Shown: positions 12,862-26,807 of the stretch, in pieces
Layout of the letters: each line of letters opens with the position of its first letter
How positions within the stretch are numbered: position 1 is the stretch's first letter
NCBI RefSeq assembly: GCF_000017305.1
Contig: NC_009664.2
Location: 4,590,001-4,622,000, forward strand
Reading direction: 5' to 3'
DNA length: 32,000 nucleotides
Source: Kineococcus radiotolerans SRS30216 = ATCC BAA-149
GTDB lineage: Bacteria > Actinomycetota > Actinomycetes > Actinomycetales > Kineococcaceae
The notes under the pieces: model-generated
Database searches by the model: none
Told to the model about the DNA's origin: nothing
The model's input: only the letters and a program-made list of their open reading frames with translations
Position numbers and translations under genes: made by a program

Positions 12862-12965
12862 GCCGGAGTGACGGTCACCGCTGAGAGGTGGGAGACGGCA
12901 AGGCACCCGTTCGCTCATCGTCGCGTGCGTGACGTCGCGACCGCCGACGCACCGTCCGGATCGCG

Positions 12966-12994
12966 GGTGACCAGGCGAACGATGGTGAGGTCCA
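12966..12994 (+). repeat. intergenic repeat copy, apparently split by a 12-nt insertion
   Basis: CCGGATCGC-GGGTGACC-aggcgaacgatg-GTGAGGTCC. Confidence 0.6.
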
Positions 12995-13291
12995 GCGGTG
13001 GGGTGCGGCGGCAGGGAGCGAAGGCCGGAGACGTCCACGTGGGCCTTTGCTGCGCTGGACGGGTCAAGCTGGTGCCCACCACCTCCACTGGGCCGATGTC
13101 GCGGGCACAGTGGTCAGCATGGACGTCGACCTCCCGATCAGCCGGGCGGGCACCGGGTGACGGCAGGTCGATCATCGTCATCGCCGAGCGGGACTGAGGT
13201 GTCCGCACGAAGCTCCCGCGCCCTGCGCCACCTTCGACCCCGGCAGGTGCCCGGATACGCCGAGGCGGTTGCCCAGCGGCGAACACCGCAG

Positions 13292-13777
13292 GTGCCGAGC
13301 ACACCACCTCAGCTGCTGCCTGGGCCGAGTGCGCACCGGTTGGAGGTGCGCCTGCTGCTGGGGGGTGTCCCGGTATTCGCGGTGAGCGTGTGGTTGATCT
13401 TCTTCCTCTCCAGAGGAGGACACGGCGGCTGGCTCGGCTCCGGCTTGGTGCTGCTGGTGGGGCTGGCGCCTTTCGCCTGGGTGGCGCACGGGTGGAAGGC
13501 CGTGGGCAGACGCAACATCGAGGAGCTGCAGCACGGTTACACGACCACGGTGATGAGGTTCGGGCAGTTCCACGTCGGTGGTGGGGGCCATGTCCGCGAC
13601 ACTGACGCCGGTCCGCCGTGGGATTACAGCGGCACGTGGGTGCTGCAGGGGGATGGACGGGTGAAGTCCGTGCCGCGGCCGGGAGTGGAGCCTCCGGGGA
13701 TGTATCCCTCGCCTGTGCGAGCGGGTGCTGAGGAGTTGTGGACCGGCGCTTCTTGGACGGGCTACTACCGCGCGTGA
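13292..13777 (+). CDS. membrane protein with C-terminal DUF2510-like motif
   Basis: Two TM helices (VPVFAVSVWLIFFL, LGSGLVLLVGLAPFAWVA). C-terminus PGMYPSP...ELWTGASWTG resembles the GWYPDP...RYWDG..WT motif. Start uncertain (GTG 13292 or 13346). Confidence 0.6.
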   Translation: MPSTPPQLLPGPSAHRLEVRLLLGGVPVFAVSVWLIFFLSRGGHGGWLGSGLVLLVGLAPFAWVAHGWKAVGRRNIEELQHGYTTTVMRFGQFHVGGGGHVRDTDAGPPWDYSGTWVLQGDGRVKSVPRPGVEPPGMYPSPVRAGAEELWTGASWTGYYRA

Positions 13778-13910
13778 ACGCCGGCGGGGGCCACGGCCTC
13801 ACCGCTGGGGGTCATCTCGGATGCGTGCTGAGGTTCCCGCTGAACGTCTATGCCCTTGTTCTGCCGGTGAGGTCGACCGCTCGGTCATCGTCAGGACCGT
13901 GCGACGTCTG

Positions 13911-13928
13911 CGGATGACCGTGCGGTCG
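13911..13928 (+). repeat. GGGATGACC-core intergenic repeat (CGGATGACC variant)
   Basis: CGGATGACCGTGCGGTCG. Partner arm CGGTCATCGTCAG at 13882-13894. Degenerate copies at 13818-13837 and 13891-13908. Confidence 0.85.
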
Positions 13929-14022
13929 TGGCTCGAGGTCCGGTATCAGGAGTTCATGTGGCGGGTGGGCTCTACGCCGGCTGGGGGTCCTGCGGCAGGC
14001 TGAGCGACCGAGGCCGCAGAGC

Positions 14023-14457
14023 GTGGCCCACCATGAAGGCGTGTCCAGCGCCGAGCGTGACCCGTCAAGCAGTCCGCCGCGCTCAGGGGCGCTGCGGAGG
14101 CGTGGTCTTCTTCGCGGATTCGGGGTCGTCGCCGTGATCATCGTGGGTGTCCTGGTGGGTCGTGTCCTGGGCGCCTCGACGCTCAGTACGACGGTAGGGG
14201 AGCTCCTGGTCTGGGGAGCCACCTGTGCTGGGCTCACCCTCGCTGTGATCGTGGGTCGCCTATTGGTTCATCCCTGGTGGGGAGCCGTGCTGGCGTGGGG
14301 GGCGTTCATGGCAGGTGTGGTGCCTCCGCTGTCGGATCAGGACGCCTTGTGGGCGGTTGGGGCGTTCGTGCTCGCTCTGCTGGCTGCGGGCTACGTCGCC
14401 GTCCTGAACTCGGTGGTCTCCGCGTTGGACGAGAGGCGTCGGCGGCGCCTCCGCTGA
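14023..14457 (+). CDS. integral membrane protein, hypothetical
   Basis: 144 aa, GTG start, four hydrophobic helices, high GC3. Confidence 0.6.
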   Translation: MAHHEGVSSAERDPSSSPPRSGALRRRGLLRGFGVVAVIIVGVLVGRVLGASTLSTTVGELLVWGATCAGLTLAVIVGRLLVHPWWGAVLAWGAFMAGVVPPLSDQDALWAVGAFVLALLAAGYVAVLNSVVSALDERRRRRLR

Positions 14458-14555
14458 TGGGGTGGGTCTCTGGGCGAGAAGGAGGCAGGAGCATCCGAGA
14501 CCGCTGGCATCTCCTTCAGAGCGGTTGTCGCCAGCAGCGCAACCGCGCGGACGGC

Positions 14556-14573
14556 GGGATGACCGCGAGGTCG
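14556..14573 (+). repeat. GGGATGACC-core intergenic repeat
   Basis: CGGACGGC-GGGATGACCGCGAGGTCG. Lies 8 nt from the stop at 14582. Confidence 0.9.
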
Positions 14574-14581
14574 CAGGCCGC

Positions 14582-14876
14582 CTACTTCGTCGCTGCCCGG
14601 TCACGATCGTGGTCGTCGAGACGCCCACCCCACGCGAGCAGCAGGGCAAACCCCGAGGAGATCAACGGCAAAGCGAAGTAGATCAGCAGAATCCACGACC
14701 TGCCGGCGACTGCGAAGACGAGCTGGGTGGCGATGACCGTCAACGGAACCGCGATGCGCGCCCAGAAGTTGGCCGTGAACAGCATCGGCCAGGGCGCGAT
14801 GAGGTGCACCATCCAAGGGATGCCGTAGACCGCTATCCAGCCCAGCGCCTGCAGCGGGGACCTCTCGACGAAGGGC
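14582..14876 (-). pseudogene. 3' part of a membrane-protein gene, probably truncated by the IS3-family insertion
   Basis: The annotated ORF starts at ATG 14812. The frame stays open, with no start codon, up to the IS end (…PPFVERSPLQALGWIAVYGIPWMVHLIAPW…). It could instead be an independent 76-aa gene. Confidence 0.45.
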
Positions 14877-14918
14877 GGGTCTGCCCCTACTTCAGTTGAC
14901 CCTCGTCAGTAGGGGCGG

Positions 14919-15791
14919 TCAGGCCGCGTGAGCGGCTTGCAGGAGTGTCTCGTACTCGATGGGTGTCAGTCGACCCAGCGCTTGCTGACGACGGCGGCGG
15001 TGATAGGTCCCCTCGATCCACGAGACGATGGCCAGGCGCAGCTCCTCCCGACTGGCCCAGCGCCGGCGGTTGAGGACGTTCTTCTGCAGCAGGCTGAAGA
15101 ACGACTCCATGGCGGCGTTGTCCGCGCAGGTCCCGACCCGACCCATCGACCCACGCGCTTGCCCTGCCGAAAGAGCGCGAAGGTAGCGGTGGGAACGAAA
15201 TTGGGCTCCGCGGTCCGAGTGGACCACGAGCTCAAGGACATCGGTCCCACCGCGCAGTGCCAGCGCGTTCGACAGGGCTTGGACGGCGAGGTCGGCAGTC
15301 ATGCGGGCATCGATGGAGTAGCCGACGATGCGGTTGGAGCAGGCGTCCTTGACCGCGCAGAGGTAGAGCTTGCCTTCGGCGGTGGGATGTTCGGTGATGT
15401 CGGTTAGCCAGAGGGCGTTCGGCTTCTCAGCGGTGAACTTACGGCGGACGAGGTCGTCGTGCACGGGTGGTCCCGGCCGGCGCCCGGCGCCGCGTCTGCG
15501 GGCGTGGGCTGAGAACAGCTTCTGCAGGCTGCACAAGCGCTGGACGCGGTTGCGCGAGGTCCTGACGCCCTGCTGCTGCAGCTCGTCGGCGATGAAGCGG
15601 TAGCCGAACTCGGGGTCGTCGTGGTGGATGTCGACGGCGGCGTTGAGGAGGTGAGCGTCGTTCCAGTCCCGGTCGGTGACCGGAGCGGCGCGCCACTTGA
15701 AGTAAGCCTGCTTGGAGAAGCCCAGCACCCGACAGGTCACCGCGACGGGGATCCCGTCGCCGGCAAGGTCACGGACCAGCGGGTAGATCAT
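14919..15791 (-). CDS. IS3-family transposase OrfB (DDE/rve integrase core)
   Basis: 290 aa. DDE context LWLTDITE, VHSDRGAQF, CADNAAMESFF. The ATG overlaps the orfA stop (ATGA) in the -1 frame. Confidence 0.9.
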   Translation of the reverse strand: MIYPLVRDLAGDGIPVAVTCRVLGFSKQAYFKWRAAPVTDRDWNDAHLLNAAVDIHHDDPEFGYRFIADELQQQGVRTSRNRVQRLCSLQKLFSAHARRRGAGRRPGPPVHDDLVRRKFTAEKPNALWLTDITEHPTAEGKLYLCAVKDACSNRIVGYSIDARMTADLAVQALSNALALRGGTDVLELVVHSDRGAQFRSHRYLRALSAGQARGSMGRVGTCADNAAMESFFSLLQKNVLNRRRWASREELRLAIVSWIEGTYHRRRRQQALGRLTPIEYETLLQAAHAA

Positions 15792-16096
15792 TTTGGCAAC
15801 GTGTCACGGGCGAAGTACGCCGTCGCCCGCCGCAGGATCTCGTTCTCCTGCTCCAGCTGCTTGGCCCGCTTACGCAGCTCCCGGTTCTCCGCCTCGAGGT
15901 CCACGCCCACGGCAGGCGTGCTGTTGGACGCCGTCTTGCCGTCCTCGCGGTCAGCGATCCTCAGCCAGCGACCCAGGCAGGACTCGGAGATCCCGAAGCT
16001 GCTAGCGATCTTCGCTCGGGTCTGCCCGCCTTGGCGGGCGACGGCGATCACGTCGCGGCGGAACTCGTCGGGGTAGCGCTTGTGCACGGTGCTCAT
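15788..16096 (-). CDS. IS3-family transposase OrfA (HTH)
   Basis: ATG at 16096 preceded by GGAAGG. MSTVHKRYPDEFRRDVIAV...RAKIASSFGISESCLGRWL followed by a leucine-zipper-like LEAENRELRKRAKQLEQENEILRRA. Confidence 0.85.
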   Translation of the reverse strand: MSTVHKRYPDEFRRDVIAVARQGGQTRAKIASSFGISESCLGRWLRIADREDGKTASNSTPAVGVDLEAENRELRKRAKQLEQENEILRRATAYFARDTLPK

Positions 16097-16155
16097 CCTT
16101 CCAGCGAGGACCATGATCCTCACAGGTCGGAGTCAACCAAAGCGGGGGCAGACCC

Positions 16156-16356
16156 GGGAGCCCCCAGCTGCTCCAAGGCGGTGTCGAGCAAGAGGCGCAG
16201 CTGGGTGGGGTCGTGATCGGGGACTGCCGTGGCCAGCTCGCGCACGGCTGGTGAGTCGTAGCCGCGGCTGAGCGCGGTGTTGGCCCATGTGCTCATGTGC
16301 TCGGCCGGCAGGTAGCCGAGCACGGTACGGGCACGGGCGCGCTGGAGAGGATCCAC
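16156..16356 (-). pseudogene. 5' fragment of a cassette gene disrupted by the IS; paralog of 25635..26162
   Basis: VDPLQRARARTVLGYLPAEHMSTWANTALSRGYDSPAVRELA...LEQLGAP aligns with VDPLYRARARAHLGDLPPEQMPDWAAHALARGYDSPALRELA...LDELGAP. The reading frame runs into the IS terminal repeat. Confidence 0.7.
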
Positions 16357-16463
16357 GGATGCAGTGTCGCTAAGGAGGGAAAGCTGGGCTTGCTCTGGGC
16401 GGGTGAGAACGCTGCCGGACTCATTCCTTGCCAGGGCTGCGACGTGATCATCGCCCGTAGGGC

Positions 16464-16481
16464 GGGATGACCGTGACGTCG
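16464..16481 (+). repeat. GGGATGACC-core intergenic repeat
   Basis: GGGATGACCGTGACGTCG. Compact hairpin with GATCATCGCCC at 16446-16456. Lies 19 nt from the stop at 16501. Confidence 0.9.
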
Positions 16482-16500
16482 GTGTGGGCCGTGCGTAGGG

Positions 16501-17262
16501 TCAGGTGGGGAGGTTGACCCCGTCCCTCAGCAGGGCGACCCCGGCGACAGGATCACCAGAGACGTTCACGCTGACGCCGAAGACGTGATCCGCCGCGGTG
16601 GCGCGCCAGGCCATGCGAGTGTCACCAGGATCCATGTATTGGACTCCGAGCACGTTGCCGTTGCGCCACTGCAACGTGGTGAAGTCCGAACTGGAGGGCT
16701 CGCTGGTCGCCGAAGCGGTGGGCGGCTGGGCGATGTCCCCGCCGTAGAGGATCGTCATCCACACCAGTCCCTGGCTGCGGGCCTCATCGAAAGACGTGCC
16801 GTCGGCGTCCACGCCCGGAGGTAGGTAGGCGATGTTCACGCCGTGGACGTCGGCCGCCGGGTCCGCCGGCGGTGCAGGTGGGTTGGCCGCTGAGGGCACC
16901 GGGTGCTCGAAGATGCCGGCGCCTTCGGAGCTGCCGCAGGTGAGGGTGAAGCCGCGTTCCTGCAGCGTCGGGAAGCTGGGGATGGGGATGCCGAGGTGCT
17001 CGGCGACCTCATCGCACGCCAGGGCGCCGCCTACGAGGTCTTGGGTGGTGCTGAGTAGCCCCAGGGGGTTGCCGCGGCGGGCGTACTCCGGGTGGGTCAG
17101 CGCCGCGACGGCGTCCTCTTGAGCGGGCGTCAGGACCAGCGCGGGCTGCTCGCCCTCTTCGGGGGAGGTGGCGGTGGTCGGGGTGTTGCCGCAACTGCAG
17201 AGGGCGTACAGCACGAGGGTCAGGCCGGCGACCCGCCGTGCCGCTCGTGTTCTCCTGCTCAT
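16501..17262 (-). CDS. secreted protein / probable lipoprotein, hypothetical
   Basis: ATG at 17262 preceded by GAGGGGA. Signal-like MSRRTRAARRVAGLTLVLYALCSCGN. 253 aa. Confidence 0.75.
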   Translation of the reverse strand: MSRRTRAARRVAGLTLVLYALCSCGNTPTTATSPEEGEQPALVLTPAQEDAVAALTHPEYARRGNPLGLLSTTQDLVGGALACDEVAEHLGIPIPSFPTLQERGFTLTCGSSEGAGIFEHPVPSAANPPAPPADPAADVHGVNIAYLPPGVDADGTSFDEARSQGLVWMTILYGGDIAQPPTASATSEPSSSDFTTLQWRNGNVLGVQYMDPGDTRMAWRATAADHVFGVSVNVSGDPVAGVALLRDGVNLPT

Positions 17263-17366
17263 GCTGTCCCCTCACTGGTGATCGCGTCGCTGCTGGGACG
17301 CACCAGCAGTCTTGCCGCCATCACGGGCCGGTGTCTCACCGGAGGGGCGATGACCACGCGGACGGC

Positions 17367-17384
17367 GGGATGACCGGTAGATCG
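17367..17384 (+). repeat. GGGATGACC-core intergenic repeat
   Basis: CGGACGGC-GGGATGACCGGTAGATCG. Tandem partial copy GCGATGACCACGCGGACG at 17347-17364. Lies 12 nt from the stop at 17397. Confidence 0.85.
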
Positions 17385-17396
17385 ACATCGTCAGCT

Positions 17397-17801
17397 TCAG
17401 GGCTGCTGCCAGGGTGCGAGGTGGTGGGCATCACCTGGGGCGACAGCTAGCTCCACGCGCAAGCCGTCGGTGAAGACCACGGTCCACACCTGCGCCCAGG
17501 GGTCCAGCCAGACCAGCTCGCTTTTCTGCGGCTTGCGCGGTTCGGAGCTTTCGAGTCGGCCGCCGACCAGCACTGCGCCACGCCAACGCAGATCACCCTC
17601 GTCGCTGATGACCGCACCTGCCGCGCCACCCCACGCCTGGCTGAGCCCATGAGGTGACGGCCCCAGGGACCGGATGCTGGCGTCGAAGACGCCCTCGCCG
17701 TAGAGGCCGCGTTGGCCGCGGCGACGTAGTCGGGGGGCGAGCAAGCCGATGGCGGTGCCGAGGATCGCCATGGCGATGACTGTCCAGATCCAGTGGGGCA
17801 T
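17397..17801 (-). CDS. membrane-anchored hypothetical protein
   Basis: ATG at 17801 preceded by AGGAG. N-terminal TM MPHWIWTVIAMAILGTAIGLLA. 134 aa. Confidence 0.6.
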   Translation of the reverse strand: MPHWIWTVIAMAILGTAIGLLAPRLRRRGQRGLYGEGVFDASIRSLGPSPHGLSQAWGGAAGAVISDEGDLRWRGAVLVGGRLESSEPRKPQKSELVWLDPWAQVWTVVFTDGLRVELAVAPGDAHHLAPWQQP

Positions 17802-17885
17802 GGAGCTCCTGAGTGCGGCGATGGGAGGGGTCTCAGCTCCCAGGTTGCCAGCTCCGCCGAGGCACTGAGCGATCATCCGGAATTC

Positions 17886-17903
17886 GGCATGACCGCGACG
17901 TCG
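17886..17903 (+). repeat. GGGATGACC-core intergenic repeat (GGCATGACC variant)
   Basis: GGCATGACCGCGACGTCG. Partner arm GATCATCCG at 17871-17879. Confidence 0.85.
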
Positions 17904-17929
17904 CCGGTCGTGTACGACCGCCCGGATCG

Positions 17930-17947
17930 CGGTATGACCGTGCGTCG
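17930..17947 (+). repeat. GGGATGACC-core intergenic repeat (GGTATGACC variant)
   Basis: CCGGATCG-CGGTATGACCGTGCGTCG. Second copy in the same gap, 44 nt after the previous one. Confidence 0.8.
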
Positions 17948-17982
17948 CCCATCCCCTTATCCCGGCTGCCTACGCTGGGCCC

Positions 17983-18686
17983 GTGGCTGACCTGCAGATC
18001 GTCGTCCTGCTCTTCCCCCAGGTGACGCAGCTGGACTTCACCGGGCCGCGCAGGTCTTCGACCGCCTCCCCGGCGCCCAAGTGCATCTGGCCTGGCACGA
18101 GACCGCACCGGTGGTCACCGACTGCGGCTGGTCCATCGTGCCCACCACCACCTTGGCTGACTGCCCACCGGCGGACATCCTGTTCGTGCCCGGTGGGGAG
18201 GGCGCCTTCGACCTCTTCGGCGACGACGTCGCCCTGGGCTTCCTGCGCCGCCAGGCCGCCTCCGCGCGGTGGGTCACCTCGGTGTGCACCGGCTCCTTCG
18301 CCCTCGCCGCGGCGGGCCTGCTGACCGGCAAACGGGCCACCAGCCACTGGGCCTCGTTGCCGATGCTGGCGGAGTTCGGCGTCGTGCCGGTGGCTGAGCG
18401 CGTCGTGGTCGATGGTGCGGTGGTCACCGGTGCCAAGATCACCTCCGGCATCGACTTCGCGCTGCACCTGGCGGCGTTGGAGTGCGGTGAGGATCTGGCC
18501 CGGTGGGTGCAGCTGGCCTTGGAGTACGACCCCGCTCCGCCCTTCAACCATGGCTCCCCACGGACCGCTGATCCGGAGACGGTGCGTCGGGGGCGGAAGC
18601 GGGCCCGAGCCAGTCGTTTGCTGCGGGTGCAGCAGGCAGCTGGTCGCCTTGCCCAGGACGCGGGTCAACGCGGCGTCGCGCCGTGA
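17983..18686 (+). pseudogene. DJ-1/PfpI-family (GATase1-like) gene with a -1 frameshift near codon 22
   Basis: N-terminus VADLQIVVLLFPQVTQLDFTGP (frame of 17983) continues as AQVFDRLPGAQVHLAWHETAPVVTD... only in the frame of ORF 18081..18686. The junction is at 18046-18050 (GGGCCGCGCAG). Nucleophile-elbow-like VTSVCTGSFALAAAGLL. Confidence 0.8.
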
Positions 18687-18749
18687 GACGAGCGGTCGTC
18701 TTGGCTCGACTCCTGACAGGTGGGTGACGGCTGCGACGTTTTGGTCAGC

Positions 18750-18767
18750 GGGATGACCGGGCGTCTG
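18750..18767 (+). repeat. GGGATGACC-core intergenic repeat
   Basis: GGGATGACCGGGCGTCTG. Lies 63 nt after the stop of the + strand gene. Confidence 0.85.
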
Positions 18768-18922
18768 ACGGGTGGGCTTAGGCACGGTGACACTGGGAAT
18801 GCTGCTGCCCAGCGACGGCTTGTAGAGGGTGGTTGATCTGCTGCATGTCCCCGGGCCTCACCTTCAGCCGCTTCGAGCGGCCTTTCGCCGAGAGGCGACT
18901 GCCGGATCGACCATCGCGCCAC

Positions 18923-18950
18923 GGCCGCCGGGCTACTCAGCCCGGCGGCC
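18923..18950. terminator. perfect 12-bp stem hairpin between convergent genes
   Basis: GGCCGCCGGGCT-actc-AGCCCGGCGGCC. No U/T tract on either side, so at best an I-shaped or bidirectional terminator. Confidence 0.45.
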
Positions 18951-18988
18951 GTCGTGCGTCCTGAGTGGGTCAGTGCCGCGCTGAACGT

Positions 18989-19006
18989 GGGATGGCCGCG
19001 CAATCT
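18989..19006 (+). repeat. GGGATGACC-core intergenic repeat (GGGATGGCC variant)
   Basis: GGGATGGCCGCGCAATCT (compare GGGATGACCGCGCGTTCG at 2489). Lies 11 nt from the stop at 19018. Confidence 0.7.
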
Positions 19007-19017
19007 CCAAATCCGTG

Positions 19018-19767
19018 TCAGCTTTCGTCGACGTCGAAGCGGACAAGGACGACGTAGTCGTCGCTGGACAGGTGCGGGTAGTAGTTCCGCAAGCCGGGCA
19101 GCACGCTGGCCGCGTCGGCGAAGCCGTCCTCTCGCGCTTCCTCGTCGCTGATCTCGGCGACAGTCTTGGCGGTGGTGGAGGTGATCCTGCCCGCCAGGGT
19201 GACCTCGTCGTCGACGTCACCGGCGTTGAGGTCACCGGCGGTGTCGGTCCTGGCGGGCTCGAAGACCAGCAGGGCTGGACCGACCTGCACGGGATCGTCG
19301 AGGCGCAGGGTGGCGCGCTTGCTGCCGTCGCGGACCGCGGGTAGGTGGGAGGCGCGGAAACGCAGGCGTTGAACCTGCTGCGCCTGCCAGCGGTAGGTGT
19401 GTGGCAGCAGCTCCTCAGCTCCTACTACCTGGGGACGGTCAGGGGTGGGGACGACGACGGAGATGGTCGGGTAGTAGTCGGCCAGGACTTGCCGGTCTCG
19501 TCCGCACGGGGCGAGCACCCCGCGGCCCTCGTCGCCGACGGCGACGATGAGGCGGGGGGCTTGCGCGCCGGCGGTGCGGGCGGTGGCGAGGGCGACGAGC
19601 TCGGCGCAGGGGCCGCCGGTGAAGTGGTAGAGGTTCAGCCCGACGTGGATGCGGTCGTGCTCGTCGAGGACGGCGGCGGCGACGGTGTGGATGTTGCCGT
19701 CGCCGTGCTCGCGGGCGGCGTCGATGAGCGCAGGTACGGCGTCTGGGCCTACCGGGTCGGTGATCAC
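19018..19767 (-). CDS. cytidine-deaminase-like domain fused to an ASCH-like domain
   Basis: HFTGGPCAELVAL (CAE zinc/catalytic motif) and APCGRDRQVL (PCGxCRQ-like, second Cys replaced by Asp). C-terminal half ASCH-like (LPAVRDGSKRATLR...EEAREDGFADAASVLPGLRNYYP). GTG 19767 chosen as start. Confidence 0.7.
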   Translation of the reverse strand: MITDPVGPDAVPALIDAAREHGDGNIHTVAAAVLDEHDRIHVGLNLYHFTGGPCAELVALATARTAGAQAPRLIVAVGDEGRGVLAPCGRDRQVLADYYPTISVVVPTPDRPQVVGAEELLPHTYRWQAQQVQRLRFRASHLPAVRDGSKRATLRLDDPVQVGPALLVFEPARTDTAGDLNAGDVDDEVTLAGRITSTTAKTVAEISDEEAREDGFADAASVLPGLRNYYPHLSSDDYVVLVRFDVDES

Positions 19768-19840
19768 GGGGGCAGCGTAGGGGCGGGTCGCGCAGGTCGT
19801 GATGTTCCTTGCCAGGCGCCAGCGACAGCGCTCACAACGC

Positions 19841-19858
19841 GGGATGACCGTGAGGTCG
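19841..19858 (+). repeat. GGGATGACC-core intergenic repeat
   Basis: CTCACAACGC-GGGATGACCGTGAGGTCG. Degenerate copy CCGATGACCTTGCCTTAG at 19884-19901. Confidence 0.9.
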
Positions 19859-19963
19859 TGGCTACCGTGATCCCGCCGATCGCCCGATGACCTTGCCTTA
19901 GGTGAACCGCCACTGCTGATCCCTTGTGCGGGTTCTCTAGAGCGGGGACAAGTGGTGGTGGGC

Positions 19964-20359
19964 TCAGTCCACGCGGGTGTGCAGGTGCCAGCCGTGGGTG
20001 CGGCACTGCTGCACCAGGTCAGCAGCTTCCTGCAGCGCAGCGAGCTGCGGGGGGCTGTCGGCGGCCAAGGTCTGAGCATGCAGCAGGTCATGCGCCAGCT
20101 GATCGAGGTCCTCGGGGCGGTAGCGCCGGTCGTACCAGGGGTGGAACTGGGCAAGCTCTGCTAGTCCGGCGGCGTAGCGCTCATCCGGGGAGTGGCTTCG
20201 GATGAACTCTTCGAAGGCGTCTTGGGTGTCGGCGTTGTCGGCCTTGACCTGTCGGTCGGCATGCAGGCGGTGGGCGCGTCGCTCCGCACGGGTCAGGTCC
20301 TTCAGTGGACGGGTGTGCTGCTCCCACGCCTCGGTGGTGGCGACGAGCGTGATGGCCAT
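19964..20359 (-). CDS. hypothetical protein
   Basis: 131 aa, ATG at 20359 with GGAG upstream, predicted helical. No family recognised. Confidence 0.7.
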   Translation of the reverse strand: MAITLVATTEAWEQHTRPLKDLTRAERRAHRLHADRQVKADNADTQDAFEEFIRSHSPDERYAAGLAELAQFHPWYDRRYRPEDLDQLAHDLLHAQTLAADSPPQLAALQEAADLVQQCRTHGWHLHTRVD

Positions 20360-20471
20360 GGTCAGTGCTCCAGGTCCTCGAGGATCGCGTCAGGGGCTGA
20401 GGAGCCCACCACAGCACATCGTCGGCTGGCAGGTGATCGTTCCCGCCCCCGTCAGTGATCACGCGGATGGC

Positions 20472-20489
20472 GGGATGACCGTGAAGTCG
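20472..20489 (+). repeat. GGGATGACC-core intergenic repeat
   Basis: GGGATGACCGTGAAGTCG. Lies 17 nt from the stop at 20507. Confidence 0.9.
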
Positions 20490-20506
20490 GTCAAGCCGCT
20501 CGTCGT

Positions 20507-20941
20507 TCAGAGCTGCGGCAGGGTGTAGCGCGCGATCCGCTGCTGGCCCCACCCGAAGCGGCTCTCGGTGATCCAGTCCTCGAGGTGGCTGGCCAGGCGC
20601 TGTGCGCACTCCTGGGCGGTGAAGGGGGAGTGCTGCTCGCCGTCGGTATCGCCGCCGTGCCACGACGGTGAGCTCAACAGGTCTTGGAACGTCTCGCCGG
20701 CGGCGGTGATGGTGATCCAGACGTCGCCGGGGTCGCCGTCGATGCCCCAGTGGAGAGTGAGCTGCTGCAGCTCTTCCTCGCGCAGCAGCGAGGTCACGAC
20801 GGGCAGAGCCACGGTGTTCTTGAGGGTGTGCAGGTGCTCGTCGTCGGCGTCGGTGATGTCGCCCGGCCGGGCATGGATGGGTCCGCTGGAGGCGCCGAAG
20901 TGGAGAGTCAGCTTGCTTGAGTAGGCCGATTCTTCGTCCAT
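20507..20941 (-). CDS. hypothetical protein
   Basis: ATG at 20941, 144 aa, acidic, high GC3. Confidence 0.65.
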   Translation of the reverse strand: MDEESAYSSKLTLHFGASSGPIHARPGDITDADDEHLHTLKNTVALPVVTSLLREEELQQLTLHWGIDGDPGDVWITITAAGETFQDLLSSPSWHGGDTDGEQHSPFTAQECAQRLASHLEDWITESRFGWGQQRIARYTLPQL

Positions 20942-20980
20942 AGTCAGCACGCTATGGGGCTGGGACTTCGCACCCAAGGC

Positions 20981-20998
20981 GGGATGACCGTGAAGTCG
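20981..20998 (+). repeat. GGGATGACC-core intergenic repeat
   Basis: GGGATGACCGTGAAGTCG. Lies 11 nt from the stop at 21010 and 39 nt from the start at 20941. Confidence 0.9.
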
Positions 20999-21009
20999 AG
21001 GTGTTCGGG

Positions 21010-21633
21010 TCAGTAGTGCGGCAGCCCCTCTTCTGGGACGTCGTCAGCGCACGCCACCCGCTGTTGCTGAACGACGTAGGCCGCAGGCTCGACGTGCAGT
21101 TGCAAGCAGGTGCGGCCCCACTCGGAGCTGTTGACGAAGCTGGTGTCCTGGGAGAGCAGGTAGACGGCCAGGACGAAGGTGGCCTCCGCCGGCGGGGTCG
21201 CCCCACCGGCAGTCGGGACGTCGCTGCTGAGCACTCGCCACGACCCCCTGGACCGGCCCGTCCAGTACGTGGCCGGCGGGTCCTGCAGCCAGTCTTGGAT
21301 GTCGTTGACGCGGATGTCGTTGATGCGGATGTCATTGACGTCGTTGACGCGGAGGGGTGTTGCTGCTGCGCCGTCCGGATCGAGCTCTCCGGGGATGCGC
21401 CCGGTCTGGACGTAGCCCTGCACGTCGTCGACGACTTGCTGCGCGACGTCCTGGGCCAGTTCGTCGGCAGCGGACAGGGGTGGCGCGGCGGGCTCGTCGC
21501 GCACCGCGAAAGCAGCGCCCGCCAGGACCAGGGTCGCGACCGCGGACAGGGCGAGGCGAGCACGTAGTGCGGGCCGGGCGCGCAGCGGCGAGTGAGCAGT
21601 GATCTGCGGCCCGTCCACGCTGCGACTGGTCAT
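21010..21633 (-). CDS. secreted/membrane-anchored hypothetical protein with a short internal repeat
   Basis: ATG at 21633 (alternative 21711). Signal/TM segment LALSAVATLVLAGAAFAV. 15-bp coding tandem repeat at 21297-21350 giving VNDVNDIRINDIRVNDIQ. Confidence 0.6.
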   Translation of the reverse strand: MTSRSVDGPQITAHSPLRARPALRARLALSAVATLVLAGAAFAVRDEPAAPPLSAADELAQDVAQQVVDDVQGYVQTGRIPGELDPDGAAATPLRVNDVNDIRINDIRVNDIQDWLQDPPATYWTGRSRGSWRVLSSDVPTAGGATPPAEATFVLAVYLLSQDTSFVNSSEWGRTCLQLHVEPAAYVVQQQRVACADDVPEEGLPHY

Positions 21634-21859
21634 GGTCGCGGTACCTGAGTCGTGATCACCTGGCGAGTCTTCCAGGAGGGTGAGGTGCGTCGAGGCCTCT
21701 GCATGGACCATCCCCGAGACCACCACACCGTGCCGCGGGGGATGGAGGGCTTGAGCGGTGTGGAGGGCTCGGGCGGATGATCGCCCGGCTTTCATCTCGC
21801 GCCTGGACACCTGCGGATGGGTGAAGCCGTCAGCCGCCGACGGTAACGGCGCACACCGC

Positions 21860-21877
21860 GGGATGACCGTGAAGTGC
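21860..21877 (+). repeat. GGGATGACC-core intergenic repeat
   Basis: GCGCACACCGC-GGGATGACCGTGAAGTGC. Confidence 0.9.
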
Positions 21878-21953
21878 TGGGGTCTTTGGTCCAAGGGTGT
21901 AACGACCCAGGCAGATGACGGCGCCGGTGCGCTGGGTGTAGCACGATGCAGGC

Positions 21954-22244
21954 GTGACGTGGGTGATCTGGGTGTTGTTGGGAGGGGCCCTTTCTGTGCT
22001 GTCGGTGAGGGCTGATGCGAAGAGGTCGCCAGGCCGTCGCCTCTCCTGGTGGGGCCAGCGCCCGCGTGGGCGAGGCTGGTTCGCTGCCCTCGACTTCGGC
22101 GCTGTCTTCTGCGTCATCATGGCTGGTACCTCCGCAGCAGAGACCGCGACGCCGACATGGGTGGTGGCTGCTGCAGTCGGCGCCGCCATCCTGCTGCCCT
22201 ACCTAGCCGGAGTGGGCCTGCACAATCGCTCGTTGAGCCGCTGA
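21954..22244 (+). CDS. small membrane protein, hypothetical
   Basis: 96 aa, GTG start, three hydrophobic segments. Confidence 0.5.
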   Translation: MTWVIWVLLGGALSVLSVRADAKRSPGRRLSWWGQRPRGRGWFAALDFGAVFCVIMAGTSAAETATPTWVVAAAVGAAILLPYLAGVGLHNRSLSR

Positions 22245-22292
22245 CACCAGCATTGCTGGCCTGCGTGCCCTCAGCGCCTGCGCAAGGTCTGC

Positions 22293-22310
22293 GGGATGAC
22301 GGTGAGTACG
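22293..22310 (+). repeat. GGGATGACC-core intergenic repeat (GGGATGACG variant)
   Basis: GGGATGACGGTGAGTACG. Directly abuts the stop codon at 22311-22313. Confidence 0.8.
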
Positions 22311-23510
22311 TCAATGGACGGCGGGCCGGTAGGCCCTGGCTGTGGTGTCCACCTCGTCGTTGCCCAGTTCGGGGGCACCACTGATGGCGCCCAGGGCGAT
22401 GAGTACGTCATCGGCCCACACGACGGCGCCGGGACTGCTCCCGCCCTTGTCCGGGGGTGGGGGTAGTGACGTCCAGGTGCGGCTGCGGTCGTCGTAGAGC
22501 AGGCCCTGGGTGGCGATCAGGCCCTCTCCAGCGGCTTCCACCCACTACCCCGGGGCGAGATCGGCCGCTTCTTCAGCGCCTGGCAACGTCGACCAGGCAC
22601 CCCCGGGGAGGGTCAGGACCCCGGCAGCCGGTAGCTGCCTCCCGGCATAGGGCCCGACCGCCGGGGTGAAGCCGGCGAGGGGGATGGCGTCGATGACGCG
22701 GTTGCCGTGCAGGGTGAGTTGCCCCCCTTCCAGTTGCTGGTAGTTCGGTAGCCGCCGCCAGGTGCCGGCCTCGACGTCGAGCAGGGCAGCAGCCAGTGGT
22801 CGTGGGCCGATGTCGTCGCGGGAGTAGTCGGGGTCGATGGCGATGAGCAGGAAGCCGTGGGGGGTGTTGATGGCGCGTCGCCCTGCCCGGCCCAGCGGGT
22901 CGGTCGGCACCAGCGACCACTGCTGGGTGCGGGTGTTCCACTGGAAGTCGGGGATTTCCTCGAAGCCGGTGGCGGTGAGGATCAGGTGGTCCCCAGCGGC
23001 GTGGAGCCAGTTACCGGTGGACTCGGCGGGAAGGTCGTGCCGGGTCCAGGTGTCGGTGGTGGTGTCGAACTGCATGAGGCCTTGGGGGGCGAGGAAGTAG
23101 ACACTGCCGTCGATGGTGGGGGCACCGGAGCTGGCGTCGATGGAGGCGACGGGTGCTTCGGGCAGGGTGCGCCAGGTGCCGGTGGCGGGGTCGGTGCCAG
23201 GGGTGAAGGCGATGCCGTCGCGGTGGCGGACGTCCTCGGGGGTGGCGGTGAGGGAGTCGCCCCAGGTGTCACCGCTGTGGGGGATGGTGGGCGAGCCGCC
23301 CAGGAACACCGCTTCGGTGCCCGTCCACGCTGACAGCGCCCGTAGGCGGGCCGGGCCTGGTGCCGGCGGAAGGATGGACCATCCTTCGGGCAGGGTCGGC
23401 TCCAGGGATGGACCGGCTGCGGCCTGCCGACCCCTGGTGCAGGCGCTGGTGGCAGCCAGGAAGGCAACGGCAGTCGCAGACAACGCTGTCCGGCGTGTCA
23501 GTCGGTGCAT
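22311..23510 (-). pseudogene. Kelch/beta-propeller-like secreted (lipo)protein gene interrupted by an in-frame TAG
   Basis: ATG at 23510. Signal MHRLTRRTALSATAVAFLAATSAC. Recurrent blade-like motifs (TWRTLPEAP, TWTRHDLP, QWSLVPTDP, TWRRLPNY, AWSTLPGAE). TAG at 22545-22547, after which the same frame continues with another blade (RTWTSLPPPP...AVVWADDVLIALG) to the TGA at 22311. Confidence 0.75.
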
Positions 23511-23687
23511 GATGATCGCCCTCTTCTCGGTGTCCCCTCGATCGTGGCGCGGTGACGGGCTTGCTGTCGCGGTGGTTCCTGTCGGCGGCATCGGCGACGG
23601 GTGTGATCTTAGGTCGGTGACCTGTAGAACCCTCCGCAACCCAGCAGATGAGTGAAGCCGCCAGCCCCCAACGACAGCGCACGATGC

Positions 23688-23705
23688 GGGATGACCGTGA
23701 GGTTG
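23688..23705 (+). repeat. GGGATGACC-core intergenic repeat
   Basis: GGGATGACCGTGAGGTTG. Lies 50 nt from the stop at 23756. Confidence 0.9.
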
Positions 23706-23755
23706 TGGAGCTGTCCCAATCGCGCCCGGATCGCGCACGTTTCGCACCTGCAGGC

Positions 23756-24799
23756 TTACGGAACCTCGAACTGGCCGATGACCGTACTGCCGTCGGAGGC
23801 GTAGACCGGGATGTCGTGGGGAGTGGCTGGGTGGTTCTGCGCCCAGGTGGCCGCCTCTTCAGGTGAGGTGGGCGTCGGCTGGCCCGCTTGGAGATCACGG
23901 GCGTAGACGTAGCCCTGCTCGCCGGTGCTGGTCTGAGCCGCCACAGCGATCAGGTCGGGATCGCCGCTGCCGTCGGTCTTGCTGACGCCGTAGGTGTCGC
24001 CGTTGGCGTTGGTGGCCCAGTCGGTGGGGGTGTGGGTGGAGTAGGCGGTGGTCAGGGCCCACCGGGTTCCGGCGGTGGCGGTGATGGTGGTACTGGTCTG
24101 CCCCGTCGTCAAGGGCAGGGTGTAGCCGGCGCTGCCGCGGTGCGGCAGCGCGAGACCGGGAGTGGGAGTCGCCGCGTTGGACGCGACATCTTCCGCAGCG
24201 ACATTTTCGACTGCGACGTCCTCCGCGACGACGTCCTCGGGTGCGCAGGTCAGACCGGCGCCGTCGTCGAAGGTGAGGCTGCCGACGCTTAGGCAGGTCA
24301 GGGTCAGCTCGACGCTGGTGACCCCCGATGGGCGCTCGCCGAGGTCGATGGTGGTGGTACCGGTGTGCACGACCGTGCTGGCCGGGGTGCGCAGGACGAC
24401 CTGGTCGGCTCCTGGCAAGGGGAGAACCCCGGAGGCGACCGCGGCCCCACCGCCGGCGAGGCCGACGGCCAGGACGGCGCTGAGGGTGAGGGTGCGACGG
24501 CGAGACCAGCGGCCCCAAGGACCATTGCCCCGGCGGTGCTCGGTCACGGTGGTGGCGACGGTGCGCTGCAGCTCCCTGCGCAGCGCCGCGCGGAAGACCG
24601 GGTCCGGAGGAGTGGAGCTTGTCGCGGTGAGACGGTCCCGTAGCCGCACGTCGAACGCAGCGTCGTCGCTGGCGTCGTGGCTGGCGTCGTGGCTGGCATC
24701 GCAGCTGGCGTCGTTAGCGCTGTAGCTGGCATCGAAGGACTGGCCATCGGCCGGGGAGGGGCTGCCGGTGGTGCGGGGGGTGCGCGGCTGATCGCTCAT
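23756..24799 (-). CDS. single-pass membrane protein, putative anti-sigma partner
   Basis: The ATG at 24799 overlaps the sigma stop (ATGA). TM segment LTLSAVLAVGLAGGGAAVA. 12-bp coding repeat at 24668-24715 (DASHDASHDAS). Confidence 0.75.
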   Translation of the reverse strand: MSDQPRTPRTTGSPSPADGQSFDASYSANDASCDASHDASHDASDDAAFDVRLRDRLTATSSTPPDPVFRAALRRELQRTVATTVTEHRRGNGPWGRWSRRRTLTLSAVLAVGLAGGGAAVASGVLPLPGADQVVLRTPASTVVHTGTTTIDLGERPSGVTSVELTLTCLSVGSLTFDDGAGLTCAPEDVVAEDVAVENVAAEDVASNAATPTPGLALPHRGSAGYTLPLTTGQTSTTITATAGTRWALTTAYSTHTPTDWATNANGDTYGVSKTDGSGDPDLIAVAAQTSTGEQGYVYARDLQAGQPTPTSPEEAATWAQNHPATPHDIPVYASDGSTVIGQFEVP

Positions 24800-25419
24800 G
24801 GATGCTGCCCTTCGGATGCGTGCAGGCGGCCAGCGGCGGGATGGTCGGCCAAGGCGGTGCGCAGGCGGGTGCGGGCCCGGTGCAGGCGGGTCTTGGCGGC
24901 CCCGGGGGTGAGGTCGAGAAGGTCCGCGGCCTCCGTGAGGGCGTACTCCTCCAGCACCACCAGCGTGATGAGCTGCAGGTCGACCGGCTTCAGTGACCGC
25001 AGCGCGCGTGTGAGTTCCTCATCGCCGAAGTCAGCGATGCCGGCGAAGTCGCTGGGGGCGGTGTGAGCTGTACGGGCCGCCTCGCTAGCGTCGGGAGTGC
25101 TGTCCTGGCGGGGCAGACGCTGCAGCAGGTCACGGTAGCGGCGGGTGCTGCGCTGGGTGTTGCGGGCGAGGTTGGTGGCGGTGACGAGCAGCCAGGGCAG
25201 AACGCTGTCGTGGACGAGGCGGACGTGCTCACGTCGCCGCCACAGTTCGAGGAAGGCAGCCGCGGTGACGTCGTCGGCGTCGGTGCTGCTACCGGTCGGG
25301 ACCAGGCGCAGGGTGTGGCGGTAGACACGGGCGTGGTGACGGTCGAAGAGGACCCCGAAAGCGTCGCTGTCTCCGCGCAGGCTGGCGGCCCAATGCTCGC
25401 CGTCGGTTGCGGTGTCCAC
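24796..25419 (-). CDS. ECF-type RNA polymerase sigma-70 family factor
   Basis: GTG at 25419. Region 2-like DADDVTAAAFLELWRRREH. Region 4 HTH-like LTEAADLLDLTPGAAKTRLHRARTRLR. Confidence 0.9.
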   Translation of the reverse strand: MDTATDGEHWAASLRGDSDAFGVLFDRHHARVYRHTLRLVPTGSSTDADDVTAAAFLELWRRREHVRLVHDSVLPWLLVTATNLARNTQRSTRRYRDLLQRLPRQDSTPDASEAARTAHTAPSDFAGIADFGDEELTRALRSLKPVDLQLITLVVLEEYALTEAADLLDLTPGAAKTRLHRARTRLRTALADHPAAGRLHASEGQHP

Positions 25420-25554
25420 GCCCTCTAGTGTCCGTAGGGGCCTGGATGGTTACAGGGGTGGGCCACCAATCTGGCGTGGAGGCGCCCGTCCCTGGTGCAC
25501 CCGCTGCTCGGCGCCACCCTGATGCCGCTGGCCACCAGCGACCGCCCGGACCGC

Positions 25555-25624
25555 GGGATGACCGTGCGCTCTCCCACCGCGGGATGACCGTGCGCCCTCG
25601 CACCGCGGGATGACTGCACACTCA
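25555..25624 (+). repeat. three tandem copies of the intergenic repeat (26-nt period)
   Basis: ACCGC-GGGATGACCGTGCGCTCTCCC / ACCGC-GGGATGACCGTGCGCCCTCGC / ACCGC-GGGATGACTGCACACTCA, with cores at 25555, 25581 and 25607. Ends 10 nt from the stop at 25635. Confidence 0.9.
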
Positions 25625-25634
25625 CGGCTGAAGG

Positions 25635-26162
25635 TCATGTCTGCACAGACGGTGTGCTGGCTTCGTCATCGAGGGTCATGAACCGGTCCGGGTCAGGTCG
25701 CTTGTCCAAGGTGTCCAGGGTCATGGAGGACAGGAGCTCATGGGCGTACTCGATGATCTGGCGCCTGCTCTGGTCGTGGTCGATCTCCCAGGAGTACTCC
25801 CAGTCGGTGGCTTCGTTGAGCAGGCCGTTGAGCTCTTCAGGGTCACCGAGGCTGCTGGAGATGCCCCAGATGAGCTCAGCTCCCTCCTCCGGGCTGATGA
25901 GGCCCTCGACGATGGAGCGGGCGTGGGTGTGGGCCATCACCCACAGCGCCTGGTGGTCGCTGAGCTGGGGGGCGCCGAGCTCGTCGAGGGCGGTGGTGAG
26001 CAGGTCGCGGCGGGCGCGGGGGTCTTGCGGGGCGCCGGCGAGTTCGCGCAAGGCGGGGGAGTCGTAGCCGCGGGCCAAGGCGTGGGCGGCCCAGTCGGGC
26101 ATCTGCTCGGGGGGCAGGTCGCCGAGGTGGGCGCGGGCTCGGGCGCGGTAGAGCGGGTCCAC
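25635..26162 (-). CDS. hypothetical protein; intact paralog of the IS-disrupted gene at 16156..16356
   Basis: 175 aa, GTG start. The N-terminal about 65 aa align with the 16356 fragment. Confidence 0.7.
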   Translation of the reverse strand: MDPLYRARARAHLGDLPPEQMPDWAAHALARGYDSPALRELAGAPQDPRARRDLLTTALDELGAPQLSDHQALWVMAHTHARSIVEGLISPEEGAELIWGISSSLGDPEELNGLLNEATDWEYSWEIDHDQSRRQIIEYAHELLSSMTLDTLDKRPDPDRFMTLDDEASTPSVQT

Positions 26163-26254
26163 GGTCTCAGTGTCGCCGAGCCGGCAGGTGCGGGGAGGTC
26201 CTTCTGGGGAGTCGGTGACGCTGCAGCGGTGGGAGCGTCACGTCACACCACCGC

Positions 26255-26773: not shown

Positions 26774-26807
26774 CCCATCCTAATCCGTCTCCATCCGTCT
26801 CCATCCG

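Follow-up and report, generated by a model that had tools for sequence, protein, structure and literature searches.

The 32,000-nucleotide (nt) stretch of the Kineococcus radiotolerans SRS30216 genome analysed here (NC_009664.2, positions 4,590,001–4,622,000; hereafter the window) is an internal part, at least 32 kb long, of a chromosomal gene-cassette array, in which a short repeat recurs between genes and always faces the same way. We interpret the copies of this repeat as directional site-specific recombination sites bounding mobile cassettes, a reading to which we assign a probability of roughly 0.6. The core of the repeat, GCGGGATGACCG, occurs 31 times in the window with at most one mismatch, all 31 copies lying on the + strand between 866 and 31760, compared to an average of 0.63 matches and a maximum of 4 in 100 dinucleotide-preserving shuffles. 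A 38-column profile of the site, built from 329 copies, recovered the same copies together with a few weak or degenerate ones, again all on the + strand (E<0.1; Table 1).

The repeat keeps its + orientation beside the genes at 18081–18686, 26339–26773, 29853–30401, 30465–30875 and 30880–31701, that is, beside every plus-strand gene of the window, as had been claimed in the initial annotation of this DNA. Within 8-kb chunks containing at least three copies, co-oriented copies outnumber inverted ones by 332:5 when counted by pattern and by 262:1 when counted by profile (E≤0.01). Genes in the window lie opposite to the site in 28 cases and on the same strand in six, while the other arrays have 97 opposite and 80 same-strand genes (125 and 86 taken together). 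Thus 82% of the genes in the window array run against the site, whereas 45% (80/177) of those in other arrays run with it, and the 28:6 bias is peculiar to the K. radiotolerans array. Since gene strands are mixed while the strand of the site is fixed, site orientation is independent of gene direction; this bears out the initial proposal that the repeat ignores the direction of its neighbours, and copies elsewhere do not flip with the adjacent gene.

Cassettes shared between genomes end at the repeat

Five segments of the window have homologs in other Kineococcus species (10630–11338, which carries a WapI-like immunity gene, 17962–18641, 18748–18998, 18967–19819 and 20979–21809), and in each case the alignment starts or stops at repeat cores and the neighbouring genes differ. 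The WapI cassette, for example, whose WapI protein has a near-identical paralog on the same contig, shares 85% identity with a cassette of K. sp. SYSU DK002 (locus L088) whose neighbours are different. In an all-against-all comparison of array loci, blocks of at least 88% identity had 44 of their 82 left ends at positions -21 to 0 relative to the start of the core (mode exactly 0) and 31 of their 85 right ends at +7 to +23, and in high-identity pairs the block begins at 0 and ends at +11 to +19. The clearest case involves two Kineococcus genomes, in which L070:3588–4566 matches a cassette of L055 with 99.2% identity over 979 nt, from core to core, with divergence immediately to the left of core position 0 (CGCACCGTCC vs CGCACAAC) and again immediately after +11 (AGCACTT vs TGAAGTCC). 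At junctions between different contexts (30 left, 44 right), identity is 0.27–0.32 outside the site, ~0.5 in the semi-conserved positions -12 to -1 and 0.98 in the core.

Cutting the arrays at their cores yielded 256 cassettes, including 21 multi-member families whose members lie in different neighbourhoods; one of them, F3, adjoins four different right-hand neighbours. Pairs within cassette families have the same orientation in 51 cases and are inverted in only one. The breakpoints lie at the edges of the core and therefore place the crossover within its 12 nt. The -10 flank would then belong to, and travel with, the left-hand cassette, and the TGARGTCG tail would move with the right-hand one. 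Read on the minus strand, the cassette that we delimit here ends with ORF (open reading frame), stop codon, short spacer and the complement of tail and core, and thereby matches in essence the unit drawn in the initial annotation.

We propose that the repeat acts as a directional double-strand recombination site of ~28–30 bp, and that cassettes with a median length of ~0.8 kb, usually with one gene in either orientation and presumably with its own promoter, would be gained, lost or swapped through crossover within the 12 bp of the core. A circular cassette integrating at a directional site already present would produce direct repeats only, which would explain why all copies are co-oriented and blind to gene direction. 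ORFs could extend as far as the site without ever entering it, and 3' ends, needing less spacer than 5' ends, would come to hug it. On this model the exchange would be site-specific rather than homologous and would proceed via circular intermediates, with a Xer-type tyrosine recombinase as the leading, unproven candidate enzyme.

Anatomy of the site

Information content is restricted to positions -10 to +20 around the start of the core, with nothing conserved in fixed register beyond these limits (329 copies). The consensus over the ~28–30 conserved bp is CgCgCggAcC-GCGGGATGACCG-TGagGTCG, the flanks forming a short imperfect dyad around an asymmetric, G-rich centre. Tandem 'empty' units with a period of 26–28 nt make up 41 of 220 spacings; each has the form GCGGGATGACCG-TGCGC(C/T)n-GCGCGCACC, and examples are found in the window at 25543–25624 and at loci L077, L104 and L109 (Table 1). 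These units indicate that the minimal full site is 27–28 bp, and they expose a dyad, GCGCAC...GTGCGC. Judged by its sequence, a site of this size and layout may suit a recombinase of the core type acting on double-stranded DNA. The cargo-less tandem copies are nonetheless puzzling, as site-specific deletion would leave one site only; they could have arisen by slippage, unequal exchange or some other route.

A degenerate second copy or half-site (..CATGACCGCGACGTCG..) lies ~45 nt to the left of the cores at 2487, 11327, 17929 and 28991, forming what may be called double sites. The left halves occupy 2429–2460, 11269–11300, 17876–17905 and 28933–28965, sometimes with CTCGCTCTTCGCCAT further to the left, and only that at 17876–17905 reaches even a weak profile score.

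Use of the ATG in the core as a start codon was considered and rejected, as just two predicted genes begin at +5 in a set of 263 copies. Three + strand ORFs of the window (26258, 26989 and 30465) do start exactly at a core-internal ATG or GTG (GGG-ATG-ACC), probably through coincidence or over-extension of the ORF. The start of the ORF called at 30880–31701 is doubtful because the site at 30938–30967 overlaps its 5' end. A further motif, GGTCTCA, occurs in the window no more often than expected by chance and was rejected as well.

Stop codons lie close to the site

The initial annotation had put forward a positional rule, according to which the stop codons of 20 out of 21 minus-strand genes lie 0–63 nt from the nearest repeat at lower coordinates. 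Every gap that it quoted is confirmed when the end of the repeat is set at core position +19: 0 nt at 22310/22311, 8 nt at 14573/14582, 9 nt at 28314/28324, 10 nt at 25624/25635, 11 nt at both 20998/21010 and 19006/19018, 12 nt at 17384/17397 and 13 nt at 7056/7070, as well as the exceptional 105 nt at 19858/19964. The bias is real, but the exact count hinges on the gene set. With our own models for the window, obtained with a codon log-odds score trained on long ORFs and checked with Pfam, the stop lies within 65 nt in 18 of the 25 copies that have a minus-strand right neighbour, and the others are followed by cassettes with several genes or with none called, or by a 14-nt tandem repeat. The latter (ACTGGGGGAGGCTC, ~7 copies, 4764–4889) lies between the site at 4574–4603 and the stop of a SpoIIE-phosphatase gene at 4883, and explains one long stop-to-repeat gap.

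Throughout the Kineococcus arrays fetched, opposite-strand stops begin sharply at +21 and predicted ORF ends never fall within -10 to +20, which points to selection on the site. With all arrays pooled and gaps measured outward from the conserved 30-nt stretch, the median gap at the right edge is 38.5 nt where a stop faces the site and 79.5 nt where a start does (p=3e-9), and at the left edge 61 nt and 105 nt, respectively (p=7e-7); stops also lie nearer to the right (tail) edge than to the left (38.5 vs 61 nt, p=3e-4). Proximity of stops to the repeat is therefore genuine but not specific to one gene direction, as stops approach both edges, and the window shows a minus-strand rule because 82% of its genes run that way. 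The pattern reflects compaction of the cassettes, 3' ends needing less spacer than 5' ends.

Size and content of the cassettes

Excluding tandem units, the median core-to-core spacing is 782 nt (interquartile range 508–1403 nt). Among 179 cassettes, one gene was predicted in 97, two in 31, three or more in 14 and none in 37. The cargo is highly diverse: the 372 proteins predicted at 42 array loci form 304 clusters, 252 of them singletons, and 147 sampled cassette proteins match 103 Pfam families. GNAT acetyltransferases, APH (aminoglycoside-type) phosphotransferases, AAA_33 kinases, MFS transporters, PIN toxins and methyltransferases are the most frequent of these. The families matched also include Phd/YefM antitoxins, GrpB, NUDIX and nucleotidyltransferase proteins, and a SUKH/SMI1_KNR4 immunity protein is found among the cargo outside the window.

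One family of 400–480 amino acids (aa) recurs in several arrays (L008 5421–6851, L079 2072–3496, L059 4384–5724 and L064 2644–3870); it has no Pfam or NCBIfam match and conserves a C-terminal ..LFDE(L/V)G...DG.LD motif. It was considered as possible machinery and rejected, as its genes face either way with respect to the site and its members match no family and do not resemble a recombinase.

Distribution among genomes

A scan with the query GCGGGATGACCGTGARGT, covering one genome per species, returned at least 120 stretches. Among the matches listed, multi-copy stretches come almost only from ~20 Kineococcus genomes while other taxa contribute single chance matches, so that the repeat is confined to the genus Kineococcus among these matches and forms dense arrays in at least ~20 genomes. 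In the complete 4.8-Mb chromosome of K. sp. DHX-1, the listed exact matches occupy eight 8-kb chunks in two regions, ~2.176–2.205 Mb and ~4.704–4.719 Mb, both in the same orientation; the copies therefore represent local arrays and not a dispersed family. Collections of plasmids and phages gave only chance matches. A metagenome scan yielded a few small arrays, all from one sample series, and no recombinase adjoining them. In the literature we found neither the repeat nor any cassette array described for Kineococcus or Actinomycetota; this extends to the genome paper for this organism (PMC2587704), from which the word 'repeat' is absent.

Search for a recombinase

Pfam scans revealed no recombinase gene among the window proteins. 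The host XerC and XerD are listed as Krad_3139 and Krad_1691 in the genome paper (PMC2587704). In DHX-1, however, a 29-kb array ends ~1.9 kb from the gene for a Xer-like tyrosine recombinase that is transcribed away from the array (locus L109; Table 1). The best models for this protein are XerC (147 bits, cutoff 335) and XerD (131 bits), compared to 46 bits for the integron-integrase model TIGR02249 (cutoff 265), which matches only positions 223–298, the common C-terminal catalytic part. By these matches the protein is predicted to be Xer-like and not an IntI integrase. Orthologs are present in many Kineococcus species, and homologs with 55–60% identity occur in Nocardiopsis, Stackebrandtia, Phytomonospora and others.

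The DNA upstream of the gene contains an AT-rich dif-like site (CATAATGTAGATTATCGG), a palindrome (CGCATAACGACGAATATGCG) ~100 nt before the start codon and several TGAGAC-type direct repeats. Both the dif-like site and the palindrome are present in four other Kineococcus genomes, while the DNA beyond the AT-rich site varies between species, and from its sequence this region looks like an integration hot spot or a terminus.

The Xer-like gene was rejected as a universal partner of the arrays, as an array adjoins it in only one of the five genomes examined, and none accompanies its more distant homologs in Nocardiopsis, Stackebrandtia and Phytomonospora. In SYSU DK025 and DK019, array segments flank the gene for another Xer-like tyrosine recombinase (~313 aa), which shares 29% identity with the first and is 96% identical between these genomes where the loci overlap. 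It too was rejected as the partner, being generically Xer-like and seen only in these two genomes.

Evidence against the proposed system and alternative explanations

A number of observations weigh against recombination at a dedicated site. No recombinase is tied to the site, and the Xer-like gene of DHX-1 is a lead rather than the cognate enzyme. In four genomes with an ortholog (K. sp. NBC_00420, K. rhizosphaerae, K. sp. NPDC059986 and K. sp. G2; loci L124, L126, L131 and L133) no repeat copy lies within the 4–10 kb upstream of it, and no K. radiotolerans protein is among the matches of the DHX-1 recombinase. The AT-rich dif-like site beside the gene is conserved upstream of its homolog as far as Nocardiopsis, and adjacency to the array may reflect only plasticity of the terminus region. 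We saw neither circular intermediates nor excision scars, nor any cassette polymorphism within a species; over 20826–28378 the window is matched exactly by read assemblies of K. radiotolerans. The gene models in other genomes come from a home-made codon-score caller. Finally, a crossover within 12–30 bp of identity is predicted by site-specific recombination but might also result from short-homology recombination.

All three Logan contigs of K. radiotolerans that contain the gene at 23756–24799 end at 20826, inside the gene at 20507–20977 and not at a repeat, which may reflect a strain difference or an assembly break.

The alternative that fares best, although we consider it unlikely, is that the repeat is some other intergenic element which merely supplies portable homology, cassettes being shuffled by RecA-dependent or short-homology recombination together with gene conversion. 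The failure to find a cognate recombinase fits this explanation, as does the very efficient double-strand-break repair for which K. radiotolerans is known (PMC2587704). Breakpoints in the most conserved 12–30 nt would also be expected from homology-driven exchange. However, identity at the junctions extends over only ~12–20 nt, a length no greater than the minimum that efficient homologous recombination usually requires, and the sequences diverge at once on either side. Shuffling by homology can explain the loss or replacement of cassettes, but not a 99%-identical cassette in a new neighbourhood of another species, and it leaves unexplained both the strict one-directionality of the copies (262:1) and the avoidance of the repeat by ORFs.

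We find it improbable that the repeat is a mobile element in its own right, of the REP/MITE (repetitive extragenic palindrome/miniature inverted-repeat transposable element) or IS200/IS605 type, inserting itself on one template strand so that its orientation follows the replication fork. Uniform orientation over more than 30 kb, independent of gene strand, is what such an element would produce, and its intergenic position, often just past stop codons, is the classical REP niche. REP elements are imperfect palindromes of 20–40 nt, scattered over the genome in both orientations and associated with RAYT (REP-associated tyrosine transposase) proteins. Like REPs and their BIME (bacterial interspersed mosaic element) clusters, the Kineococcus repeat is short and abundant; unlike them, it forms no palindrome or hairpin, points one way, is clustered in arrays (two regions of the 4.8-Mb DHX-1 chromosome) and marks the boundaries of exchangeable modules, the unit that recurs between genomes being a gene with its flanks bounded by the repeat and not the repeat alone. 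The two DHX-1 arrays at ~2.2 and ~4.7 Mb moreover have the same orientation though they probably lie on different replichores, and no Y1-transposase family was found among the Pfam matches of cassette proteins (window proteins plus the 147 sampled).

A role in expression, with the repeat as a terminator, RNA-processing site or operator common to the genes of a variable island, appears to us more doubtful still. The site does lie 0–63 nt past many stops in the window and ~45–185 nt upstream of the next minus-strand start, but it does not flip with gene direction and has neither a stable stem nor a T-tract. A terminator scan found three terminator-like sites in 16 kb, compared to 4.0 expected, none of them at a repeat; no match to Rfam families or tRNAs was found in the window; and no promoter consensus was seen at the copies, although such a consensus is not scorable in this GC-rich DNA. 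Nor would a signal of this kind explain homology bounded by cassettes. The initial view that the repeat is not a gene-linked terminator or leader is thus strengthened, as cassettes recur elsewhere with breakpoints in the core and in a fixed orientation relative to the site.

Integrons, the standard example of gene-cassette capture, offer the closest likeness in architecture. Sedentary chromosomal integrons (IntI/attC systems such as the Vibrio cholerae repeat, or VCR, arrays) also consist of long chromosomal arrays of co-oriented, near-identical sites, with ORFs abutting the site and cassettes of ~0.5–1.5 kb, mostly of one gene, which are common to genomes in different orders and carry diverse cargo including GNAT, APH, toxin-antitoxin and immunity proteins. 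The end of the DHX-1 array, with a tyrosine recombinase gene transcribed away from it, resembles the intI-attI-cassettes layout. However, attC sites are imperfect palindromes of 57–141 nt (R''-L''...L'-R') that fold as single strands, whereas the Kineococcus site is conserved in sequence over ~28–30 bp and unfolded. Minimum free energies of three windows around the site are the same as for shuffles (mean z 0.08, -0.05 and -0.30; 329 copies), the only recurrent fold being a mini-stem of 3–4 bp (CGG/CCG) inside the invariant core, and on these energies, the missing R''/L''-L'/R' palindrome and the short conserved length we rejected an attC-like fold. Integron cassette ORFs are mostly co-directional, promoterless and expressed from Pc next to attI. 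Gene orientation in Kineococcus is near 50:50 outside the window, and the end of the K. radiotolerans array falls beyond the window.

That the window belongs to a canonical integron, either a sedentary one or an attC cluster without integrase (CALIN), can be all but set aside despite the matching architecture, cassette size and cargo and the tendency of ORFs to precede the site in the window (28:6), given a site of the wrong length and structure, an array-adjacent recombinase far below the IntI cutoff and without the IntI-specific domain, and a survey with IntegronFinder in which no complete integron was found in Actinobacteria, the phylum of Kineococcus (PMC4889954). Of the defining properties of an integron, an array of co-oriented sites is found here, and comparative evidence indicates independently mobile cassettes with crossover at the site, while IntI and attC sites are not found. 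The likeness to attC-terminated cassettes drawn in the initial annotation holds to the extent that cassettes carry a one-directional site, but attC structure and IntI are absent; the analogy is one of function and not of family membership.

Features of the window

In addition to the cargo listed in Table 1, the window encodes SpoIIE and tyrosine phosphatases, an AraC regulator divergent from an NmrA-like gene, an ABM protein and many proteins without a family. PADLOC defence models gave no match among 10 uncharacterized window proteins. The protein encoded at 16501–17262 belongs to a recurrent cassette family that also includes 30880–31701(+) and four proteins in L036, L037, L068 and L116. The G+C content of the window is ~70% (0.67–0.77 per kb), below the genome value of 74.2% (PMC2587704), which is consistent with acquired DNA.

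Beside the IS3-family element, a 78-aa ORF (16120–16356) is a truncated homolog of the cassette gene at 25635–26162, as judged from a repeat (D8) in which 16231–16370 is 74% identical to 26037–26176, and the IS3 element probably interrupted a paralogous cassette gene. The stretch at 12706–14543, ~1.8 kb without a confident gene or a Pfam match on any candidate ORF and with two degenerate site copies, may represent decayed cassettes. In two two-gene cassettes, 931–2348 and 23756–25419, the stop of a gene for an extracytoplasmic function (ECF) sigma factor overlaps by 4 nt the start of an unrelated gene without an assigned function; the two downstream genes are possible anti-sigma partners.

Table 1. 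Site copies, cassettes and other features of the window and of related array loci. Site copies are given as positions -10 to +19 around the core start; coordinates without a locus prefix refer to the window.
Coordinates	Strand	Feature	Remarks
856–885	+	site copy	core start 866; 26.7 bits
2477–2506	+	site copy	core match and profile
4574–4603	+	site copy	core match and profile
6323–6352	+	site copy	core match and profile
7027–7056	+	site copy	stop of 7070–7756(-) 13 nt away
7886–7915	+	site copy	core match and profile
10620–10649	+	site copy	left boundary of WapI-immunity cassette
10696–11193	-	WapI-like immunity protein cassette gene	Pfam; family F3
11317–11346	+	site copy	right boundary of WapI cassette
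12961–12995	+	degenerate, interrupted site copy	GCGGGTGACC ... TGAGGTCC
13912–13929	+	weak or degenerate site copy	by profile
14544–14573	+	site copy	stop of 14582–14812(-) 8 nt away
14582–14812	-	cassette gene, 76 aa	no family match
14919–16123	-	IS3-family insertion sequence inside cassette	orfB 14919–15791 (rve), orfA 15788–16123 (HTH_Tnp_1); 4-nt overlap
16452–16481	+	site copy	stop of 16501–17262(-) 19 nt away
16501–17262	-	cassette gene, 253 aa	no family match
17355–17384	+	site copy	stop of 17397–17876(-) 12 nt away
17876–17905	+	weak second site copy (double site)	45 nt left of next; 12 bits, E=0.016
17919–17948	+	site copy	ahead of + cassette gene
18081–18686	+	DJ-1/PfpI family cassette gene	same strand as site; 86% identical to L105 cassette
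18738–18767	+	site copy	61 nt past stop of + gene 18081–18686
18768–18976		short cassette, no called gene	family F1; homologs in L105 (two), L072, L104, L070
~18977–19006	+	weak site copy (GTGGGATGGCCG)	9.9 bits; stop of 19018(-) 11 nt away
19018–19767	-	ASCH-domain cassette gene	cassette 83% identical to L070 2695–3528
19829–19858	+	best-scoring site copy	29.2 bits; stop of 19964(-) 105 nt away
19964–20359	-	cassette gene, 131 aa	
20460–20489	+	site copy	stop of 20507(-) 17 nt away
20507–20977	-	cassette gene, 156 aa	
20969–20998	+	site copy	L088 homology (96%, first 336 nt) starts exactly at core position 0
21010–21795	-	cassette gene, 261 aa	family F18, common to L088
21848–21877	+	site copy	core match and profile
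22281–22310	+	site copy	abuts stop of 22311–22541(-), gap 0 nt
22311–23510	-	two-gene cassette (22311–22541, 22545–23510)	no family match
23676–23705	+	site copy	core match and profile
23756–25419	-	two-gene cassette	ECF sigma factor 24796–25419; 4-nt overlap with uncharacterized 347-aa gene 23756–24799
25543–25624	+	three tandem site copies ('empty' units)	26-nt period
26243–26272	+	site copy	core GCGGGATGACTG
27432–27461	+	site copy	core match and profile
28285–28314	+	site copy	stop of 28324(-) 9 nt away
28981–29010	+	site copy	stop of 29030(-) 19 nt away
29647–29676	+	site copy	core match and profile
30450–30479	+	site copy	between two + genes
30938–30967	+	site copy	among + genes; overlaps 5' end of called ORF 30880–31701
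31750–31779	+	site copy	58 nt past stop of + gene 30880–31701
L077:6593–6700		tandem empty units	
L104:3648–3790		tandem empty units	
L109:1440–1600, 2838–2945		tandem empty units	
L109:3394–3447		last site copies of DHX-1 2.2-Mb array	followed on the right by two small opposite-strand genes, then ~1.1 kb non-coding with TGAGAC-type repeats
L109:4868		AT-rich dif-like site	CATAATGTAGATTATCGG
L109:5268		palindrome	CGCATAACGACGGATATGCG
L109:5375–6400		tyrosine recombinase gene, 341 aa	transcribed away from array
L109:4200–5375; L124:9500–10000; L126:9300–10000; L131:3790–4280; L133:9340–10000; L128:7426		features upstream of Xer-like gene	
L012:7456–8000; L099:1–695		second Xer-like recombinase	

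Relation to other modular systems and implications

Xer/dif modules, such as the pdif modules of Acinetobacter plasmids and IMEX (integrative mobile elements exploiting Xer) at dif, are small modules moved by Xer and bounded by double-strand sites of 28 bp, each with two ~11-bp inverted arms around a centre of 6–8 bp. The Kineococcus repeat is similar in its minimal length of 27–28 bp, its short dyad and asymmetric centre, and in the presence of a Xer-like gene and a dif-like site at one array end. However, pdif sites alternate in orientation (inverted) and dif-like sites have an AT-rich centre and CATAA arms, whereas the site in Kineococcus is rich in GC, does not resemble dif and is always in direct orientation.

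Among published systems, the closest analogue may be rAID-1 of Bacteroidales (Ross et al. 2019; bioRxiv 10.1101/471110). Clusters of this kind are defined by a XerD-like recombinase at the 5' end, with an identity of at least 44% to BF9343_RS08045, and by low-GC genes that follow it in a common direction. Shared features are the immunity proteins encoded by some Kineococcus cassettes (WapI, SUKH/SMI1_KNR4) and the lower GC of the array (~70% vs 74.2% for the genome). In rAID-1, on the other hand, genes lie downstream of the recombinase, are co-directional and mostly encode immunity functions, while Kineococcus cassettes are mixed in orientation and carry mostly small enzymes, toxin-antitoxin systems and proteins of no assigned function; phylum and repeat sequence also differ, and a recombinase is linked to the array in one of the five Kineococcus genomes examined.

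At just short of even odds, we suggest that Kineococcus harbours a hitherto undescribed cassette-capture platform that evolved separately from integrons and uses a short, unstructured, directional double-strand site of ~28 bp with a Xer-type or as yet unrecognized enzyme. Such a platform would comprise arrays of tens of kb, in which cassettes with their own promoters lie in either orientation, and would be the first integron-like system in Actinobacteria.

The arrays amount to a genus-wide actinobacterial system with integron-like genomic behaviour, a short unstructured site and no IntI. As K. radiotolerans SRS30216 is cultured and sequenced, the question can be tested directly. If confirmed, the system would imply that cassette platforms arose more than once and that integron finders based on attC structure miss whole classes of such arrays. 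It would also provide a simple site of 28–30 bp, together with a new recombinase to be sought, as a potential tool in high-GC bacteria.

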